Assembly (NCBI GenBank): GCA_020629675.1
Contig: JAHDCW010000002.1
Location: forward strand, 1 to 56,832
From: Minisyncoccota bacterium
GTDB taxonomy: Bacteria > Patescibacteriota > Minisyncoccia > Moranbacterales > GCA-2747515
Length of the DNA: 56,832 nt
Direction of reading: 5' to 3'
This document shows positions 1,005 through 24,844 of the stretch, piece by piece (within the stretch, counting starts at the first letter, position 1; each line of letters opens with the position of its first letter). Under the pieces are notes generated by a model. It did not search any database. It worked only from the letters and a program-made list of their open reading frames with translations, and had not been told where the DNA came from. The translations under genes were made by a program, and so were the position numbers.

Positions 1005-2003
1005 TTATTTTTTTCGGTTGTTACGTTTGGTGCGCCAGCGTAGTGTCGTTAGGTAAGTCTTTTTGATGATGGTGTAGCACACCCCAATCGCGATCACGGT
1101 CGCGAGGATAATCGGAAGACTGGAGATGGACAGTGCGATGAGTTGGTCTATGATTGTCTGAGAGCGTTGGATGAGAGTATTAAAAGAGTCAATTGCGACA
1201 CCTGTCGGATCCCAGTGCGTTTCCTTGATTTCACGAGATGCCTCTGTGATAAAGATGGTGATCGTAGAGTATTCCGTTTTGTCTTTGAGATTGCTGAGGC
1301 GGGTTTCGATGATTTCGATTTCTGCTCTGATGTCACTGAGATACTCTTGAACCTGGATAATCTCCTCTACCGAGGTTGCAAGGGGGAGGACCGTTGCGAG
1401 GATTTGCTCTTCCTGTGCCTTAAGACTCTTAAGGCGAGCTTCTTGATCGACAAACACTTCTGAAACGTCTTCTGTGCTAATTGTTTCATGATGGACTTGA
1501 ATTGCCTCACCGCGGATATGTGCCATGGCGCGCTCAAAATTCTTTACCGGTACACGGATAGAGATAATACCGCTCGTGTTAAAGTTCTGATCTTGGGAAA
1601 TGTCACTATGGACGATTGATGCATCAAAGTCCGCAATCATCAGCTCTATGTCACGTGCGAGGACGTCAATCTCAACCACATCGATATGCATTGTCGCTGT
1701 TTTGATGACATGACGGCCTTCTTGCGTCTCATCTTGACTAATATTGTCGATGACGAGATTGTTTGGTGCTTGGAGAGCGCGTGATTCTGCGGCTGAGCTT
1801 TTGGTGTTGGTATCTGGCTCAATCAGCGGTGCTATTAAGTTATCACCGAGGAATGGCTTGCTTTCTTCGAGGGTGATGGTGTCTGGTGCCGGCTCAGTTG
1901 TGCCAATCATCGCAAGTGCGACGGCGATAAAACTCAGAAAGGCCAAGAGAGGGAAGATGCTTTTACGTTCTTTCGGCTTTGTTTTTTCTTTAGATTCTGA
2001 CAT
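1005..2003 (-). CDS. DUF4349-like membrane-anchored protein
   Basis: N-terminal TM anchor, a central region (RHVIKTATMHIDVVEID...EDVSEVFVDQEARLKSLKAQEEQIL...YSTITIFITE) typical of DUF4349, and a C-terminal TM. The ORF extends to 2039, but the ATG at 2003 (MSESKEK) is the more plausible start. Confidence 0.7.
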   Translation of the reverse strand: MSESKEKTKPKERKSIFPLLAFLSFIAVALAMIGTTEPAPDTITLEESKPFLGDNLIAPLIEPDTNTKSSAAESRALQAPNNLVIDNISQDETQEGRHVIKTATMHIDVVEIDVLARDIELMIADFDASIVHSDISQDQNFNTSGIISIRVPVKNFERAMAHIRGEAIQVHHETISTEDVSEVFVDQEARLKSLKAQEEQILATVLPLATSVEEIIQVQEYLSDIRAEIEIIETRLSNLKDKTEYSTITIFITEASREIKETHWDPTGVAIDSFNTLIQRSQTIIDQLIALSISSLPIILATVIAIGVCYTIIKKTYLTTLRWRTKRNNRKK

Positions 2004-8339: not shown

Positions 8340-9038
8340 ATGCCGACATATCAAGAGGGTTTTTACGTGGTGGATAAGCCGCTGGGTATTTCATCGCAGC
8401 GTGCAGTTCAATTTGTGAAATACTGGGCGCGCCATCACTCTGGAGATAAAAAGATAAAGGTGGGACATGCAGGCACACTTGATCCGCTGGCTTCTGGGGT
8501 TTTAGTGGTGGCAGTAGGACGATCTTTTACGCGAGAGATTGATGATATAGTAAGTGCTGAAAAGGAATATATTGCAGATCTCACATTTGGTGCGTACAGC
8601 GTTACCGATGATGCTGAAGGAGAAAAGGAGGTGGTGACAGATCATCCAAATGTTCGCAGGGCTGATGTGGAGAATGTGTGCGGGACATTTGAGGGGGTAA
8701 TCACGCAAGTGCCGCCAGTGTATAGTGCGATCAAGGTTAATGGACAGGAAGCATATAAGCGAACACGTAAAGGTCAAGTTATAGAAATGCAGCCGCGAGA
8801 AGTTGTAGTCCATGAGATTGAGGTGCTCGCTCATACAGCAGATAGTGCGCAGATTAGGGTGTGCTGCGGGAAGGGTGTTTATATACGTTCGCTTGCGCGC
8901 GATATCGGTGCTGCTCTTGGTGTGGGGTGTTACCTCAGTGGATTGCGGCGCACACGCGTAGGTGATTATGATCTGTCGCAGGCTTACTCTGTTGATGATT
9001 TTGCTTTTACCCGTACGACACAAGAAGAAAAAATATGA
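8340..9038 (+). CDS. truB: tRNA pseudouridine(55) synthase, short form
   Basis: Catalytic motif GHAGTLDPLASGVLVVAVG and YSAIKVNGQEAYK. At 232 aa there is no room for a C-terminal PUA domain. Confidence 0.9.
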   Translation: MPTYQEGFYVVDKPLGISSQRAVQFVKYWARHHSGDKKIKVGHAGTLDPLASGVLVVAVGRSFTREIDDIVSAEKEYIADLTFGAYSVTDDAEGEKEVVTDHPNVRRADVENVCGTFEGVITQVPPVYSAIKVNGQEAYKRTRKGQVIEMQPREVVVHEIEVLAHTADSAQIRVCCGKGVYIRSLARDIGAALGVGCYLSGLRRTRVGDYDLSQAYSVDDFAFTRTTQEEKI

Positions 9039-10156
9039 ACATAGCTATTCATGCTAGAGAGTTGGAATATGAGCGTTTTGACGGGACGCGTAATTATATT
9101 AGTGCCTTATTGAAAAAGTTTGCAGACCTTCGCTCTCCTGATGATCTGATTACGCTCTATCACGCCCATGACTTTAATTCTTCTTTTTGTGTTCCTGAGC
9201 AGCTAGCGCAGTTTGCGCAGGTGGTGCCACACCGGCCGATGTGGACACAGACACAATTTGCACGCGCCCTGTGGCGAGATAAACCTGATGTTCTCTGGAT
9301 GCCTTTTCACAACCTTCCTCTTATACGTCGCCCTTCACTTCGGACGGTCGTTACAATCCATGATCTTGCATTCAAATACTTCCCAGAGACATTTTTGCCA
9401 GCGGATGTGCGGATGCTCAATCTTTGTACTGATTATGCTGTAAAAGCAAGTGACACAATTATAGCTGTCTCTGAATCGACAAAAAAAGATATTATTGACG
9501 TTTATGGTTCCCGCTACGGTGATAAGATAAAAGTGGTTTATCATGGATTTGATCAAAGTCAGTGGTATCGTCGTCAGGATGGGCACGCACTCTCAGTAGT
9601 GAGGGCTCGCTATAAGGTCAGAGCTCCGTACATCATGTATATGGGTGCGATTCAGCCGCGTAAAAACTTAGAGTCTCTGATTGAGGCATTTGAAATACTA
9701 AGAGTTCATGAGCCACAGTTACAGCTGGTGCTCGCTGGCGGAGATGCGTGGCACAGTGAGCAGATCCATCAAAGAGCGGAAGTGTCGTCGTGTGCAGAAG
9801 ATATTATTTTTACGGGCCGCATCGAAACAGCTGATGCAGCGCTACTGATGGAAGGTGCGTCTGTGTTTGTGTATCCATCACTGTATGAGGGTTTTGGCAT
9901 TCCGATTTTGGAAGCTTTTGCGATGGGTGTGCCGGTTGTCACAATGCGCAATTCGTCGCTGCCTGAGGTTGCGGGGGAAGCAGCTTATTATGTGGAGGGT
10001 ATGGGGGCTACCGTGCTCGCAGAAGGCGTTTTGCGCGTTCTCTCGGATGATGTGCTTTCAGCTAATTTGGTAAAAAAGGGGTGTGTGCAGGTAGATCAAT
10101 TTTCATGGAATCAGTCTGCTGCAGCCACATATGATATCCTAACGTCTGATGCTTAG
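9035..10156 (+). CDS. GT4 (GT-B fold) glycosyltransferase
   Basis: E-x7-E region YPSLYEGFGIPILEAFAMGVPVV. ATGA overlap with truB. Confidence 0.85.
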   Translation: MNIAIHARELEYERFDGTRNYISALLKKFADLRSPDDLITLYHAHDFNSSFCVPEQLAQFAQVVPHRPMWTQTQFARALWRDKPDVLWMPFHNLPLIRRPSLRTVVTIHDLAFKYFPETFLPADVRMLNLCTDYAVKASDTIIAVSESTKKDIIDVYGSRYGDKIKVVYHGFDQSQWYRRQDGHALSVVRARYKVRAPYIMYMGAIQPRKNLESLIEAFEILRVHEPQLQLVLAGGDAWHSEQIHQRAEVSSCAEDIIFTGRIETADAALLMEGASVFVYPSLYEGFGIPILEAFAMGVPVVTMRNSSLPEVAGEAAYYVEGMGATVLAEGVLRVLSDDVLSANLVKKGCVQVDQFSWNQSAAATYDILTSDA

Positions 10157-11305: not shown

Positions 11306-13111
11306 TTACTTGATTTTATAAATAAGCAGATCGTTGCTGCGCTCTGTGAGTTGCGGTAGGCCGGTAAAGGTCGCTTTAGGATCGCGCGTAAGATATTCGG
11401 TTGTCAGTGTGTAAGTGATAGGGTCTTCAGCGTTTTCTGTGAGAGCCTTGTAGCGCTCACTGCTATCAACTGTAGTAATCAGGTGGATATATTTAAAACG
11501 ATCTGTTTTTAATTTTTCATAGTCCTCAGGATTAAAGAAGTAGACCGCATCCAAGTTATTTGTATGCGTAAAGATACCTGGAAGAAGTGACCATGGATCT
11601 GTGCTTGCGTTGCGGTCGATCAGGACGAGATCATGTGGGCCTAGCAGTGATTGTATTTGCTCAACGTGGAGGGGGAGCGCCGCGTGCTCGCGTACTGTCA
11701 TAAAGGAACTGCTGATGGTGAGATTATATATTACAAAAGCGATTGCAAGCGTGATGCCAGTGAGATGATAGCGCTTTTGGTGGAGTGTGTAGATGATATA
11801 AATGAATGCAAAGCATCCGATGGGGAGAAGCCAATAATAGAACCTGCGGAGCATCCAAGGGTGGTCTGCGCTAATCTGTGGATCAAAAAAGTAAAAAAGA
11901 AGTGGTCCAGTGAGTAGCAGGAGTAAGCCAGTGATGTGACGATGATGTCTATCTCGTACGATTACGCGAAAGAGTGCGAGTACGATGGTTAGTATAATAA
12001 TATGCAAACCGTAACCACTATATACAGGCAAGAGAAAATCGTAAAAAAATGCAGCATTGTCGGCATTTTGTGTGGCGGTCTGGGTTGTTTTAGGTGTAGA
12101 GATCAATAGTGATGCTATCGTTTTGTAGAAAGGAAAGCTAATGATAAGTGCAAGGCAGAGAATGCTTACAAAAAGCGAGCTTGGTAGTAGGATCCTGACG
12201 GGGACATCGGACGCAAGCCAGGACCGGACATGAGGCAGGGACAGCGCGAGAAGTGTAAAGATGCCAAAAAACCACACACCTTCAATCCGTGTGAAAAAAA
12301 GCAGACTGGTACTGAGAATAGATAAAACGATTAGGGATGTTTGGTTTTCTTCTTTGGTGCGCAAAAAGAAAAATAGTGTAAATGAGAGTAACAGTAAAAG
12401 GAGGGCGAGGTTTTCGCTGAGTGTGTAACGTGCAAACCACAAGAGGGGAAATGCACTTAGTATAAGTGCACAAAAAATAGATTCGTAGTAAAGAGTGTGC
12501 TTATTAGATAGTGCAGATCTGAGAAGTGTGCCAGCAATGAGTAGGAAAAATCCAACAAGAATCGCATTGGCAATCGGTGCACCGTGAATACCAAAGAGGA
12601 GGTTGAATCCTCCGAGAAAGCTGATGTACGGCAAAGGGAATTGGGCGATTAGTGATCCAGTAGCGCTGTAGTGGAATCCTGGAAAATTAAGTGCTGCGCC
12701 CGCGCCATAAATTTCAAAAAAACTGCTGATTGCGGGTGACTCGGTGTAAGGTGTGCCAGACTCAGCAAGGAGGTGGGCGGCGTATGCAAGTGTTCCTTGA
12801 TCGCGTCCAGTGAAAAACGATCCAGGATGAAAGTGTGAAAAAATGTAAGTACCTACAAGGATTGCCACTAAAAGTGAAAAGAGTGTATTGTGCGGTATTT
12901 TAATTGAAGTGAATGGTGTCACAGAAAGTTTAAGAAGTCCAATAAATAGACATAGTGTAAGAGGCCACAGTGTCCACCAGTAAAAAGTACCTAGAAGTGC
13001 TAGGAGGTATGCGGACCACGCATAAGAAAGAATGAGTGAGCTGCATAAAATGAGAAAATTGTGATTGCGGGTAGTGTCTGATGATGACATGGGATTGCTT
13101 AAATGTAACAC
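11306..13111 (-). CDS. Polytopic membrane protein, possible GT-C-fold glycosyltransferase
   Basis: More than 12 predicted TM helices, an early loop FTGRDQGTLAYAAHLL, and a ~130-aa C-terminal soluble domain. The functional family is not established. An alternative start is at 13090. Confidence 0.7.
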   Translation of the reverse strand: MLHLSNPMSSSDTTRNHNFLILCSSLILSYAWSAYLLALLGTFYWWTLWPLTLCLFIGLLKLSVTPFTSIKIPHNTLFSLLVAILVGTYIFSHFHPGSFFTGRDQGTLAYAAHLLAESGTPYTESPAISSFFEIYGAGAALNFPGFHYSATGSLIAQFPLPYISFLGGFNLLFGIHGAPIANAILVGFFLLIAGTLLRSALSNKHTLYYESIFCALILSAFPLLWFARYTLSENLALLLLLLSFTLFFFLRTKEENQTSLIVLSILSTSLLFFTRIEGVWFFGIFTLLALSLPHVRSWLASDVPVRILLPSSLFVSILCLALIISFPFYKTIASLLISTPKTTQTATQNADNAAFFYDFLLPVYSGYGLHIIILTIVLALFRVIVRDRHHRHITGLLLLLTGPLLFYFFDPQISADHPWMLRRFYYWLLPIGCFAFIYIIYTLHQKRYHLTGITLAIAFVIYNLTISSSFMTVREHAALPLHVEQIQSLLGPHDLVLIDRNASTDPWSLLPGIFTHTNNLDAVYFFNPEDYEKLKTDRFKYIHLITTVDSSERYKALTENAEDPITYTLTTEYLTRDPKATFTGLPQLTERSNDLLIYKIK

Positions 13112-22355: not shown

Positions 22356-24098
22356 TCAAATTAGGTTTGTGCAGTAGTTACTTATAAACTCATCGATGGT
22401 GAGTTTGATTTGCTCTTGGTTGTCGCGTGCGCGTACTGTAACTGTCTTATTTTCTACCTCTTCTTTGCCGACGACGAGCATGTACGGTACTTTTTCTTTT
22501 TGTGCGCTGCGGATCCGTTTACCGAGGGTTTCACTGTCATTATCGACGTCTACGCGAACACCGACTTTTTCCAGTTCTTTTTTTACTTCAAATGCATAAT
22601 CATCTATCTCAGATGTGATCGGGAGAATTTTAACTTGAACAGGTGAGAGCCAGAAAGGGAAAGCGCCTGCATAGCGCTCGATAAGAAATGCTATTATGCG
22701 CTCAAGAGCACCGATAGAAGAGCGATGTACGACAACGCACTCCTGATCTTCACCGCTAGCATTTTTGTATTTCAGATCAAACCGCTTTGGCATGACAAAG
22801 TCATATTGTACAGTGAATGCAGTATCCTCTTTTCCGAGTACATTTTTCATCTGAATATCAATTTTTGGGCCATAAAAAGCTGCTTCTCCCTCATTTTCCA
22901 CGTAGTGACAATCGCGCTTCTCCAGCACATTGCGTAAAATATCTTCTGCTGTATCCCAAGCTGCCTCGTCCTTGAAATATTTTTTATCGTCTGTGCGGTC
23001 TCCGAGTGATAGCGAGTACCAATAATCTTCTCCCATCGTCAGTCCAAATTTTTCTGCCACAAAGTCTATGAGGTCAAGTGCACTGCTAATTTCACTTCCT
23101 GCTTGCTCAGGATCAGCGCAAAAGATATGCGCATCTGCCAGGTTAAACGAGCGTACCCGCATGAGTCCTGAGAGTTCACCTGACTGCTCATAGCGATAAA
23201 GCTTTGCTATTTCTGCATACCGTAGGGGGAGGTCTCTGTAACTATGCGGTTTCGATGAAAATAGCTCAAAGTGATGGGGGCATGTCATAGGGCGCAGCAT
23301 AAAGCGTTCACCATCTACGTCGATTGGTGCGTACATCGAGTCTTTATAGTATGGGTAGTGACCTGACTTTTCGTAGAGCTCTACTTTCGCCATATCTTGC
23401 GTATAGACGTGTTTATAGCCGCGCTTAATTTCTTCATCAACGATAAATCGTTCTAAAACGCGCCGCAACACAGCGCCTTTTTCAGTGAGAAGGGGGAGTC
23501 CTGAACCGACTACATCGCTCGTGGTAAAAAGATCGAGTTCTTTGCCTAACTTGCGGTGATCGCGTTTCTTTGCCTCTTCGCGCATTACCATAAAAGCATC
23601 AAGCTCTTCTTTGGTGTTAAAGGCATATCCGTAGATGCGTGTGAGTTGATCGTTATTTTCGTCTCCGCGCCAGTACGCACCAGCAAGCGAGGCGAGGGTA
23701 AAGGCTTTCATGTCTAGCTCTTTTTTGGGCTCTGCTGCATGTCCACCCTCACAGAGGTCCGTGAAATCCCCTGCGGTGTAGAAGGTGATTTCCTGATCAG
23801 CTGCGACGATACCGTCAATGAGCTCGGTTTTGTATTTATTATCTTTAAACTGCGCGCGGGCTTCCTCCTCGCTTACGACACGGACCTCCATGGTCTCCCA
23901 GGTGTTGATTGTTTTTTTCATTTGCTTTTCAATTTTCTTGAGATCAGCATCAGTGATCGGCGTGCTAAAGGCAAAGTCATAGTAAAACCCATTATCAGTT
24001 GGTGGACCGATAGTAGGGCGTGCATCTGGGTATAGCTTGAGTACTGCAGCGGCGAGGAGGTGGGCAAAGGTATGTCGTTTTTTCTGAAGATCGTTCAT
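22356..24098 (-). CDS. thrS: Threonyl-tRNA synthetase lacking the N-terminal TGS domain
   Basis: It starts at MNDLQKKRHTFAHLLAAAV (HxxxH of the editing domain), followed by a class II core and an anticodon-binding domain. The ORF track extends to 24227, but that extension overlaps the T-box leader. Confidence 0.93.
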   Translation of the reverse strand: MNDLQKKRHTFAHLLAAAVLKLYPDARPTIGPPTDNGFYYDFAFSTPITDADLKKIEKQMKKTINTWETMEVRVVSEEEARAQFKDNKYKTELIDGIVAADQEITFYTAGDFTDLCEGGHAAEPKKELDMKAFTLASLAGAYWRGDENNDQLTRIYGYAFNTKEELDAFMVMREEAKKRDHRKLGKELDLFTTSDVVGSGLPLLTEKGAVLRRVLERFIVDEEIKRGYKHVYTQDMAKVELYEKSGHYPYYKDSMYAPIDVDGERFMLRPMTCPHHFELFSSKPHSYRDLPLRYAEIAKLYRYEQSGELSGLMRVRSFNLADAHIFCADPEQAGSEISSALDLIDFVAEKFGLTMGEDYWYSLSLGDRTDDKKYFKDEAAWDTAEDILRNVLEKRDCHYVENEGEAAFYGPKIDIQMKNVLGKEDTAFTVQYDFVMPKRFDLKYKNASGEDQECVVVHRSSIGALERIIAFLIERYAGAFPFWLSPVQVKILPITSEIDDYAFEVKKELEKVGVRVDVDNDSETLGKRIRSAQKEKVPYMLVVGKEEVENKTVTVRARDNQEQIKLTIDEFISNYCTNLI

Positions 24099-24146: not shown

Positions 24147-24340
24147 AAAAAAACTATTCATCACACAAAAGCAAAAAATTTTGCTCTTATGGGACGAATA
24201 GTTCTTTCTATCCGCGGTTCCACCCACATTATCGTGATTTTACAGAGTTATCACGACCACTTTATTTGTATACCTTAAAGCATCTGTGATGCTGCTCCAC
24301 GGAGCGTGTGGTTGGTAATCACACTAATTAGTACATAATT
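24147..24340 (-). promoter_or_regulatory. T-box riboswitch leader of thrS (antiterminator/terminator switch)
   Basis: Minus-strand RNA carries AAUGUGGGUGGAACCGCGG (24212-24230), matching the GGGUGGNACCGCG core. Antiterminator: GUGGG/CCCAU helix, the 7-nt bulge UGGAACC, and an 8-bp A2 helix with loop AAAGAA. Competing terminator: AACUAUUCGUC (24193-24203) pairs with GAUGAAUAGUU (24152-24162), then a U-run. Stem III is UCGUGAU/AUCACGA. Confidence 0.75.
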
Positions 24341-24430
24341 AGATTATTATAAATGTCCATTTTAGTAAAGTGTATTGCTAAATTTATTTTTTTATAGTAA
24401 TGTCTATACGTCTTTATCATGAGGTGAGTA

Positions 24431-24844
24431 ATGATTCACTTAGCATATGTACCTTTTTTAAAGAAGATTTCCAATGCATACGACCTAAACATTAGATTTG
24501 AAAAAGATCAAAGGTGGGAAGGTTATTACTATATACATTTAGATCGGACGAGTGATTGTTATGGTGGTGATTTAAATACCGCTCTCCATGTTTGGAGAGA
24601 CATTCTTACGTATCTCATCAGGCTTACGAAAGAATACCCGGAGCTCGTAAATGCGAAAGCACTTTTGGGTCAGAGTGAGGGAATGAGTTTACCTTGCACT
24701 ATCTTGTTAAAACTCGATAGAAGTGATCTGCATATGGTGAAGGGTGTTTGGGGCTTGTGGGGGTTGCGCACAAGACTCACGCTGATGCAAGCAGTTGTTT
24801 TTTTGAGGAAGTATAAAAAATACCATGTAACGGGTCAGGTATAA
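24431..24844 (+). CDS. Hypothetical protein
   Basis: 137-aa ORF divergent from thrS and followed by a strong terminator. No family recognised. Confidence 0.5.
   Translation: MIHLAYVPFLKKISNAYDLNIRFEKDQRWEGYYYIHLDRTSDCYGGDLNTALHVWRDILTYLIRLTKEYPELVNAKALLGQSEGMSLPCTILLKLDRSDLHMVKGVWGLWGLRTRLTLMQAVVFLRKYKKYHVTGQV

Follow-up and report, generated by a model that had tools for sequence, protein, structure and literature searches.

A probable T-box leader with a compact 5' junction upstream of thrS in a Minisyncoccota bacterium

In a Minisyncoccota bacterium (Bacteria; Patescibacteriota; GenBank assembly GCA_020629675.1) the gene of threonyl-tRNA synthetase (ThrRS), thrS, is preceded by a leader that we regard with great confidence as a genuine T-box. 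The DNA analysed was contig JAHDCW010000002.1, positions 1 to 56,832 (the window, meaning this whole stretch); it is contig C5 in an assembly that totals 958 kb, has a GC content of 43.5% and is 89% complete. The leader spans positions 24335-24147 of the minus strand (coordinates were obtained by exact string look-up). Judged from its sequence and computed folds, it is very probably a transcription-attenuation switch of the T-box family, which would couple thrS to the charging level of tRNA-Thr(GGU). The original prediction, made by reading the letters, had described a complete, textbook T-box at this place. This description held for the 3' half, whereas the 5' half is predicted to be a compact junction departing from the known T-box architecture, the canonical Stem I being replaced by a junction closed by a helix termed P1.

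The discriminator half and the terminator

The whole leader is carried by the 335-nt gap between a divergent open reading frame (ORF; start at 24431) and the next gene. The elements of its 3' half, and the gene that follows, are the following.

24258-24262, minus strand: purine string AAGUG (RRRxG motif), recognised in the sequence 5' of Stem III
24231-24257, minus strand: Stem III, (G)UCGUGAU/AUCACGA(U), then UAAU with the conserved AA (minimum free energy, MFE, fold)
24189-24227, minus strand: antiterminator, consisting of helix A1, the T-box bulge and helix A2 (MFE fold, covariation, Rfam alignment; motif unique in the window)
24147-24208, minus strand: intrinsic terminator, a 28-bp hairpin with U7 at 24153-24147 (RNAfold)
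22356-24098, minus strand: thrS, 580 aa, ATG at 24098-24096 (TIGR00418)

The T-box core GGGUGGAACCGCG is located at 24225-24213. It was the sole match in the window when at most one mismatch was allowed, the number expected from shuffled sequences being 0.07. Helix A1 (GUGGG/CCCAU) is formed by 24227-24223 and 24193-24189, the 7-nt T-box bulge UGGAACC occupies 24222-24216, and helix A2 (GCGGAUAG/CUAUUCGU) extends with its AAAGAA loop over 24215-24194. This antiterminator, whose core, helices, bulge and loop had all been named in the original prediction, is the MFE structure of the isolated segment (-14.2 kcal/mol). The Stem III proposed there (UCGUGAU/AUCACGA, 24257-24231) was also found, with an energy of -8.5 kcal/mol (z -3.4). 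RRRxG-Stem III-AA is a discriminator motif (Li et al. 2019, as described in PMC7583486), and all of its elements are in the window, including the succession AAGUG-Stem III-UAAU.

The terminator has an energy of -32.6 kcal/mol (z -11.6 relative to shuffled sequences). The 11-bp pairing AACUAUUCGUC/GAUGAAUAGUU, from which a mutually exclusive terminator about 50 nt before the ATG had been deduced, turned out to be a segment of this longer, 28-bp hairpin. Its 5' arm overlaps the 3' strands of A2 and A1, thus antiterminator and terminator are mutually exclusive, and 48 nt separate the end of the U-run from the ATG at 24098. The full leader folds to the terminator form. When the RNA was cut before the 3' arm of the terminator (24334-24187), the MFE structure was the antiterminator form, comprising P1, the specifier hairpin and hairpins B and C of the 5' half (see below), Stem III and the bulged antiterminator.

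The genome contains tRNA-Thr genes with the anticodons CGU, GGU and UGU. All three carry U73, the discriminator base that the UGGA bulge had been taken to predict: U73 complements the A of UGGA, and the anticodon GGU complements the codon ACC, which is displayed by the 5' half of the leader. None of these genes is in the window, where ARAGORN (1-56832) detected no tRNA gene. A search run with an E-value threshold gave a full-length match of the Rfam T-box family RF00230 to 24400-24187 of the minus strand (E 2.8e-8). The alignment is near-perfect from 'AAAGUG' 5' of Stem III through the end of A1.

The identity of the regulated gene is clear, as the encoded protein scored 648.6 bits with TIGR00418 (cut-off 383.65) and contains the class II core and the anticodon-binding domain (Pfam). 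Its top match among solved structures was the Staphylococcus aureus ThrRS (1nyq), and the closest named relatives of the gene are in metagenome-assembled genomes of Candidatus Moranbacteria/Moraniibacteriota. The protein seems to be devoid of the N-terminal TGS domain because the alignments to the S. aureus and the Escherichia coli ThrRS begin at residues 70 and 69, respectively. A longer, GTG-started thrS reading frame (to 24227) extends into the leader and is not credible. On the other side, the leader is adjoined by the divergent ORF (24431-24844, plus strand), whose 137-aa product had no Pfam match.

The predicted 5' junction, the specifier and the probable promoter

Upstream of the discriminator half, the first 67 nt of the leader are predicted to form three short hairpins closed by P1, i.e. 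a four-way junction, and this structure is the MFE fold of the segment. The components of the 5' domain and the promoter are listed below.

24330-24335, minus strand: 5' strand of P1, UGUACU, pairing with GGUAUA at 24274-24269 (MFE fold; covariation in 17 relatives)
24325-24329, minus strand: junction strand J1, AAUUA, consensus GAUUG (A-U-U invariant in 17 leaders)
24306-24324, minus strand: specifier hairpin, stem GUGUG/CACAC, terminal loop AUUACCAAC (MFE fold; six stem pairs covary)
24294-24305, minus strand: hairpin B, GCUC-CGUG-GAGC (MFE fold; a hairpin is at this place in all group-A relatives, its sequence not being conserved)
24279-24293, minus strand: hairpin C, AGCAUC-ACA-GAUGCU (MFE fold; a hairpin of 2-6 bp in most relatives, weak in several)
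24269-24278, minus strand: J2, UUAA, consensus CUAA, at 24278-24275, then the 3' strand of P1, GGUAUA, at 24274-24269 (alignment of relatives)
24346-24351, minus strand: probable -10 box TATAAT, with a weak -35 box TACACT at a spacing of 17 nt (deduced; promoters abut P1 in relatives)

Covariation was assessed on structure-blind MAFFT alignments. One of these contained 13 whole leaders, of which only the well-aligned ends were used, as the middle (hairpins B and C, J2, the 3' strand of P1 and Stem III) was misaligned. For the specifier stem and helices A1 and A2, 94.6% of the cells in this alignment were paired, compared with 39-48% when the 3' partner was slid; 14 of the 17 pairs change on both sides, and none of 500 shuffles reached the observed values. 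The other alignment contained 17 separate 5' domains. Here 95.0% of the cells in P1, the J1/J2 pair and the specifier stem were paired (25-43% after sliding), and all 13 pairs vary on both sides. The six pairs of the specifier stem are among them, and so are the six pairs of P1 with 93% of the cells paired, a value that is not wholly unbiased since the position of J2 was picked from CUAA-like motifs by the best flanking pairing. The base that ends J1 pairs with the one that opens J2, as G-C in 16 of the leaders and as A-U in that of the window, which amounts to a single compensatory event. The covariation thus supports the predicted P1, specifier stem, A1 and A2.

The specifier codon is ACC at 24316-24314, followed by A24313. 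It is the first ACC of UUACCAACC, and it could be fixed because in the relatives ACC or ACU, with a purine after it (mostly A, in a few cases G), stands at the same position of the loop. Of the two candidates offered by the original prediction, the tandem ACC-A-ACC was therefore retained with its first triplet, and ACA-A near 24268 was discarded, as it falls in the 3' strand of P1 and the linker. The second ACC (24312-24310) was also rejected; it sits at the border of loop and stem.

Inspection of the folds by eye revealed no internal loop in the 67-nt domain from which an S-turn, an AG bulge or a distal platform of T-loops could arise. Neither internal loops nor conserved sequence are present in hairpins B and C, and no conserved CCGUYA (F-box) was seen by eye across the 17 aligned leaders. 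A reading of J1/J2 (GAUUG/CUAA) as a K-turn was tried and abandoned: no tandem G.A/A.G arrangement could be drawn by eye.

The -10 box of the window ends 10 nt before P1. Similarly, 13 of the 18 leaders of the window type have a sigma70-type promoter, matching at 10 or more of 12 positions, whose end is 5-14 nt upstream of the 5' strand of P1; three of these promoters are perfect. Because the promoter adjoins P1, the RNA most likely begins near 24339.

Proposed mechanism, known T-boxes and other explanations

We propose that transcription starts near 24339 and that the first 67 nt of the RNA fold as the P1-closed junction. The junction would display ACC and the following A in the terminal loop of a hairpin, where the codon could pair with the anticodon GGU of tRNA-Thr. 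Hairpins B and C may act as a buttress for the helix formed between codon and anticodon, and the junction would in some such way compensate for the missing tRNA-elbow platform and the S-turn of Stem II. The discriminator would follow about 85 nt downstream, with AAGUG, Stem III, AA, A1, the UGGAACC bulge and A2. If the tRNA is uncharged, its free 3' end, U73-C-C-A, would pair with UGGA of the bulge, and this pairing would stabilise the weak antiterminator (-14 kcal/mol), letting the polymerase read into thrS. A charged tRNA would not be accommodated; in this case the 3' strands of A2 and A1 would be captured by the stronger terminator (-33 kcal/mol, U7) and transcription would end 48 nt before the ATG.

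The leader has much in common with class I transcriptional T-boxes (RF00230; Bacillus subtilis thrS, tyrS and glyQS), namely the RRRxG-Stem III-AA discriminator, A1/A2 with the 7-nt UGGN bulge facing N73-CCA, a specifier of codon plus purine, a mutually exclusive terminator and an aminoacyl-tRNA synthetase as target gene. It differs from them by having no long Stem I, no K-turn, no internal specifier loop with S-turn, no AG bulge/distal loop platform (IDTM, two interdigitated T-loops), no Stem II and no IIA/B pseudoknot, whereas the codon is placed in a terminal loop within a P1-closed junction. With the actinobacterial ileS T-boxes of 'ultrashort' or intermediate Stem I (Mycobacterium, Nocardia) it shares the truncated decoding stem without elbow platform and the same discriminator. 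The actinobacterial leaders, insofar as PMC7583486 reports them (citing Sherwood et al. 2015), act on translation with a Shine-Dalgarno sequestrator and depend on an S-turn Stem II and an F-box pseudoknot that keep the paired codon and anticodon in place. In contrast, the window leader has a terminator with U-run, two plain short hairpins plus P1, no F-box and no sequestrator over the Shine-Dalgarno sequence. The third group for comparison, the K-turn T-boxes of the same genome and of its relatives (ileS, glyS, aspS and 'group B' thrS), are from the same phylum and also have a short hairpin with the codon in the loop and a U-run terminator. Those leaders keep a K-turn at the base of the hairpin, whereas the window leader has the GAUUG/CUAA junction and P1 over three hairpins; the group B thrS leaders moreover appear to have a pseudoknot after the hairpin, unlike the window type.

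In the window leader a terminator thus goes together with the absence of platform, K-turn, Stem II and pseudoknot. Intermediate and ultrashort Stem I variants occur in translational T-boxes, and in those without platform (Actinobacteria) the Stem II domain is essential (PMC7583486); PMC11297988 agrees on the length of Stem I. The S-turn of Stem II and the IIA/B pseudoknot with the F-box are absent from glycine T-boxes. A full-text literature search found no paper that links T-boxes with Patescibacteria or the candidate phyla radiation (CPR), Saccharibacteria or Parcubacteria, but most subscription journals were outside its coverage and the absence is not proof. We lean slightly towards the view that the leader belongs to an undescribed, thrS-specific structural class of T-boxes across Patescibacteria, in which decoding would be done by a P1-closed four-way junction of about 67 nt in place of a long Stem I with platform, a K-turn, an S-turn-bearing Stem II and a pseudoknot with the F-box.

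A number of observations weigh against the reading of the leader as a T-box switch of this architecture. Neither a K-turn nor an elbow platform, an S-turn Stem II or an F-box pseudoknot was found in the 5' half, and the elbow platform has been described as required for transcriptional T-boxes (PMC7583486). Taken alone, the specifier hairpin of the window has little stability (-3.7 kcal/mol, z -1.7), it has an A.C mismatch at the position closing the loop, and a non-conserved alternative hairpin (CUAAUUA/UAAUUAG, approximately 24341-24323) could compete with P1. The -35 box is poor. A generic scan of the minus strand flagged neither the terminator nor the promoter of the leader; the terminator was presumably overlooked by this simple scan because the U-run is partly within the stem. 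The sequencing runs that carry the locus are DNA metagenomes only, with no RNA runs among them; the source community is an algae-associated metagenome. Finally, the match to RF00230, proposed earlier as a check in which a value under the gathering threshold would speak against a T-box, was obtained at 43 bits, below the gathering score of 93, and at gathering scores no Rfam family matched in the whole 56.8-kb window. We do not consider this score decisive because, of the five to six control genomes that gave any T-box match (Thermus, Deinococcus and Corynebacterium among them), only two reached the cut-off. The low value can be ascribed to the 5' half, which is without canonical Stem I, K-turn, platform, Stem II and pseudoknot.

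The same features of the leader bear on four other explanations. A hairpin that sequesters the ribosome-binding site, as in a translational, class II-like T-box, would suit the short Stem I with the codon near its top, so far known from the translational ileS leaders of Actinobacteria (PMC7583486, PMC11297988). The hairpin of the window, however, has its U7 end 48 nt before the ATG, leaving the start region uncovered, and hairpin and U-run are kept by the relatives as well as by the genome's three other T-box leaders; we consider a translational mechanism improbable. Still less credit is given to a fully canonical class I T-box whose long Stem I would lie further upstream and would have escaped folding in the original prediction. 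The 3' half is indeed canonical, and in formal terms the RF00230 alignment covers model positions 1-219 and extends to 24400. In this alignment, however, 65 Stem I positions collapse to 18 nt and the 5' portion is AU-rich promoter DNA: TATAAT stands 10 nt before P1, and strong promoters are found 5-14 nt before P1 in 13 of 18 relatives. The structure that covaries is P1 with the terminal-loop specifier hairpin, and the start of the divergent gene at 24431 leaves no room for more.

The specifier hairpin of the relatives, with its 6-bp stem and 7-nt loop in front of thrS, also resembles an anticodon arm and could therefore be seen as an operator to which ThrRS binds, as in E. coli thrS, to control its own gene, the T-box-like sequence being incidental. 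In the E. coli thrS operator, which adjoins the ribosome-binding site, it is the Thr anticodon, NGU, that ThrRS recognises, whereas the loop described here holds the codon ACC or ACU and some 215 nt separate the hairpin from the start codon. Moreover, the discriminator, the match of UGGN to N73 and the terminator are explained by a T-box and not by this model, which makes such an operator highly unlikely. Equally implausible is that the resemblance to a T-box arose by chance or that the leader is a decayed relic without function, despite the reduced genome and the score below the Rfam gathering threshold. The E-value is 2.8e-8 and the terminator z -11.6, the helices are intact with compensatory changes over 13-18 genomes, the bulge is invariant, and codon and discriminator match the cognate tRNA. 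A T-box switch with a P1-closed junction is, by comparison, the explanation that we prefer.

T-boxes are a model system for the recognition of tRNA by RNA, and the window leader and its relatives join a strong terminator to a decoding junction of minimal size. By the prevailing view, T-boxes that act during transcription require a long Stem I gripping the tRNA elbow, and those with a short Stem I act on translation only, aided by Stem II (PMC7583486, PMC11297988). If the proposed class is real, it contradicts the view that transcriptional T-boxes need contact with the tRNA elbow, and the junction must catch the tRNA quickly enough to forestall a 28-bp terminator while transcription proceeds. 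It would then also be the smallest natural co-transcriptional tRNA sensor and a compact scaffold for engineering. For the CPR/Patescibacteria it would mean that the feedback of tRNA charging on synthetase genes is retained despite reduced genomes. Annotation at the Rfam gathering score overlooks such leaders.

Related leaders in the genome and in Patescibacteria

Three further T-box-like leaders with hairpin and U-run were detected in the same genome, upstream of the ileS operon, glyS and aspS.

C15, approximately 9006-9266, minus strand: glyS leader; tRNA-Gly U73, bulge UGGA; loop triplet GGC-A
C1, approximately 12606-12775, minus strand: ileS-operon leader; tRNA-Ile A73, bulge UGGU; loop triplet AUC-A
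C42, approximately 1650-1900, plus strand: aspS leader; tRNA-Asp G73, bulge UGGU (wobble); loop triplet AAC-A

The fourth base of the bulge tracks the discriminator of the cognate tRNA, by complementarity for Gly and Ile and by wobble for Asp. All three leaders have a K-turn, a specifier in a terminal loop (the triplets AUC, GGC and AAC, each followed by A, were assigned by eye in a short hairpin) and a terminator with U-run. These K-turn leaders are also what the comparison of specifiers between amino-acid classes relies on, as the sub-type of the window was found before thrS alone. The loop of the aspS leader, CCAACA, presents with AAC-A an asparagine and not an aspartate codon. In the assembly no asparaginyl-tRNA synthetase scored above the cut-off, gatB is present (522 bits), and tRNA-Asn is missing from the 89%-complete sequence. 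From the AAC-A loop, the lack of asparaginyl-tRNA synthetase and the presence of gatB, the aspartyl-tRNA synthetase gene therefore appears to be tuned to the charging of tRNA-Asn by the indirect pathway.

All 41 genomes searched in the genus, family and order of the bacterium have thrS, and the 500 nt upstream of it were retrieved from 35. The sequence GUGGAACC was found upstream of thrS in 22 of these 35 same-order relatives, the fourth bulge base always being A. It is also carried by about 20 of 80 named thrS loci, whose labels include Komeilibacteria, Parcubacteria, Paceibacterota, Doudnabacteria, Daviesbacteria and 'Patescibacteria group'. T-boxes are common in the phylum, as 41 of the 121 Patescibacteria genomes in a sample had an RF00230 match at E <= 1e-4, and some are canonical (five genomes had matches above the gathering score).

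When aligned, the thrS leaders split into two designs. The window type (18 leaders) begins with the 5' strand of P1 and GAUUG; next come a hairpin of 6 bp, whose 7-nt loop has the consensus CUACCAA, and hairpins B and C, and last CUAA and the 3' strand of P1. The second type, found in other genera of the family and in other lineages, has a 5-bp hairpin that shows the codon in its loop and stands on a textbook K-turn (GAU-GA...GA). A covariance model of the 5' domain of the window type, R1, gave one match per genome in six of the 41 relatives, always in the thrS leader. It matched 18 of 99 thrS upstream regions and, in the genome of the window itself, nothing besides the thrS leader. By this measure the P1-junction sub-type is specific for thrS.

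In the K-turn-type thrS leaders (L041-L049, L058-L060, L064, L065, L068) the 3' arm of the terminator has no pairing to the 3' strands of A1 and A2. It pairs with the conserved purine string AAAGAGCGCC and the 5' half of Stem III, enclosing the whole T-box; examples are ACAACAA/UUGUUGU, ACAAUAA/UUAUUGU and CAAAUAAUUUC/GAAAUUAUUU. The terminator helix has 17 bp in the MFE fold of L049, and the duplexes computed for other leaders of this type extend to about 20 bp. Duplex energies were better than those of shuffled sequences in six correctly anchored leaders (in five of them clearly), the other seven being judged by eye. If formed, this pairing would give the K-turn-type thrS leaders a different switching topology.

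A pseudoknot-like pairing was noticed in seven leaders (L041, L043, L058, L064, L065, L068, L069), in which 3-5 nt directly 3' of the short Stem I complement the loop of the next hairpin. The pairs, seen by eye, covary (CGU/ACG, CGC/GCG, CGUA/UACG, CGCC/GGCG, CAUGU/ACAUG), and the interaction may replace Stem IIA/B. Three leaders (L078, L096, L124) have a branched insertion of 40-50 nt in antiterminator helix A2, which is reminiscent of 'stem Sa' of staphylococcal glyS. In two leaders of the window type (L082, L097) the stretch from the AAGAG string to the T-box is devoid of a Stem III hairpin, the linker reading ...AAGAGAACAAAGUUGGG; this contrasts with the description of Stem III as indispensable for the discriminator.

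A further recurrent sequence was found outside the leaders. In L038-L042, L047 and L048 the word (A/T)TGTCAATA(T/C)T... occurs about 60-90 nt upstream of the leader and overlaps the -35 region of thrS, and in some of them it forms the palindrome TGTCAAT-N-TTGACA. This word may be the operator of a protein acting in addition to the T-box.

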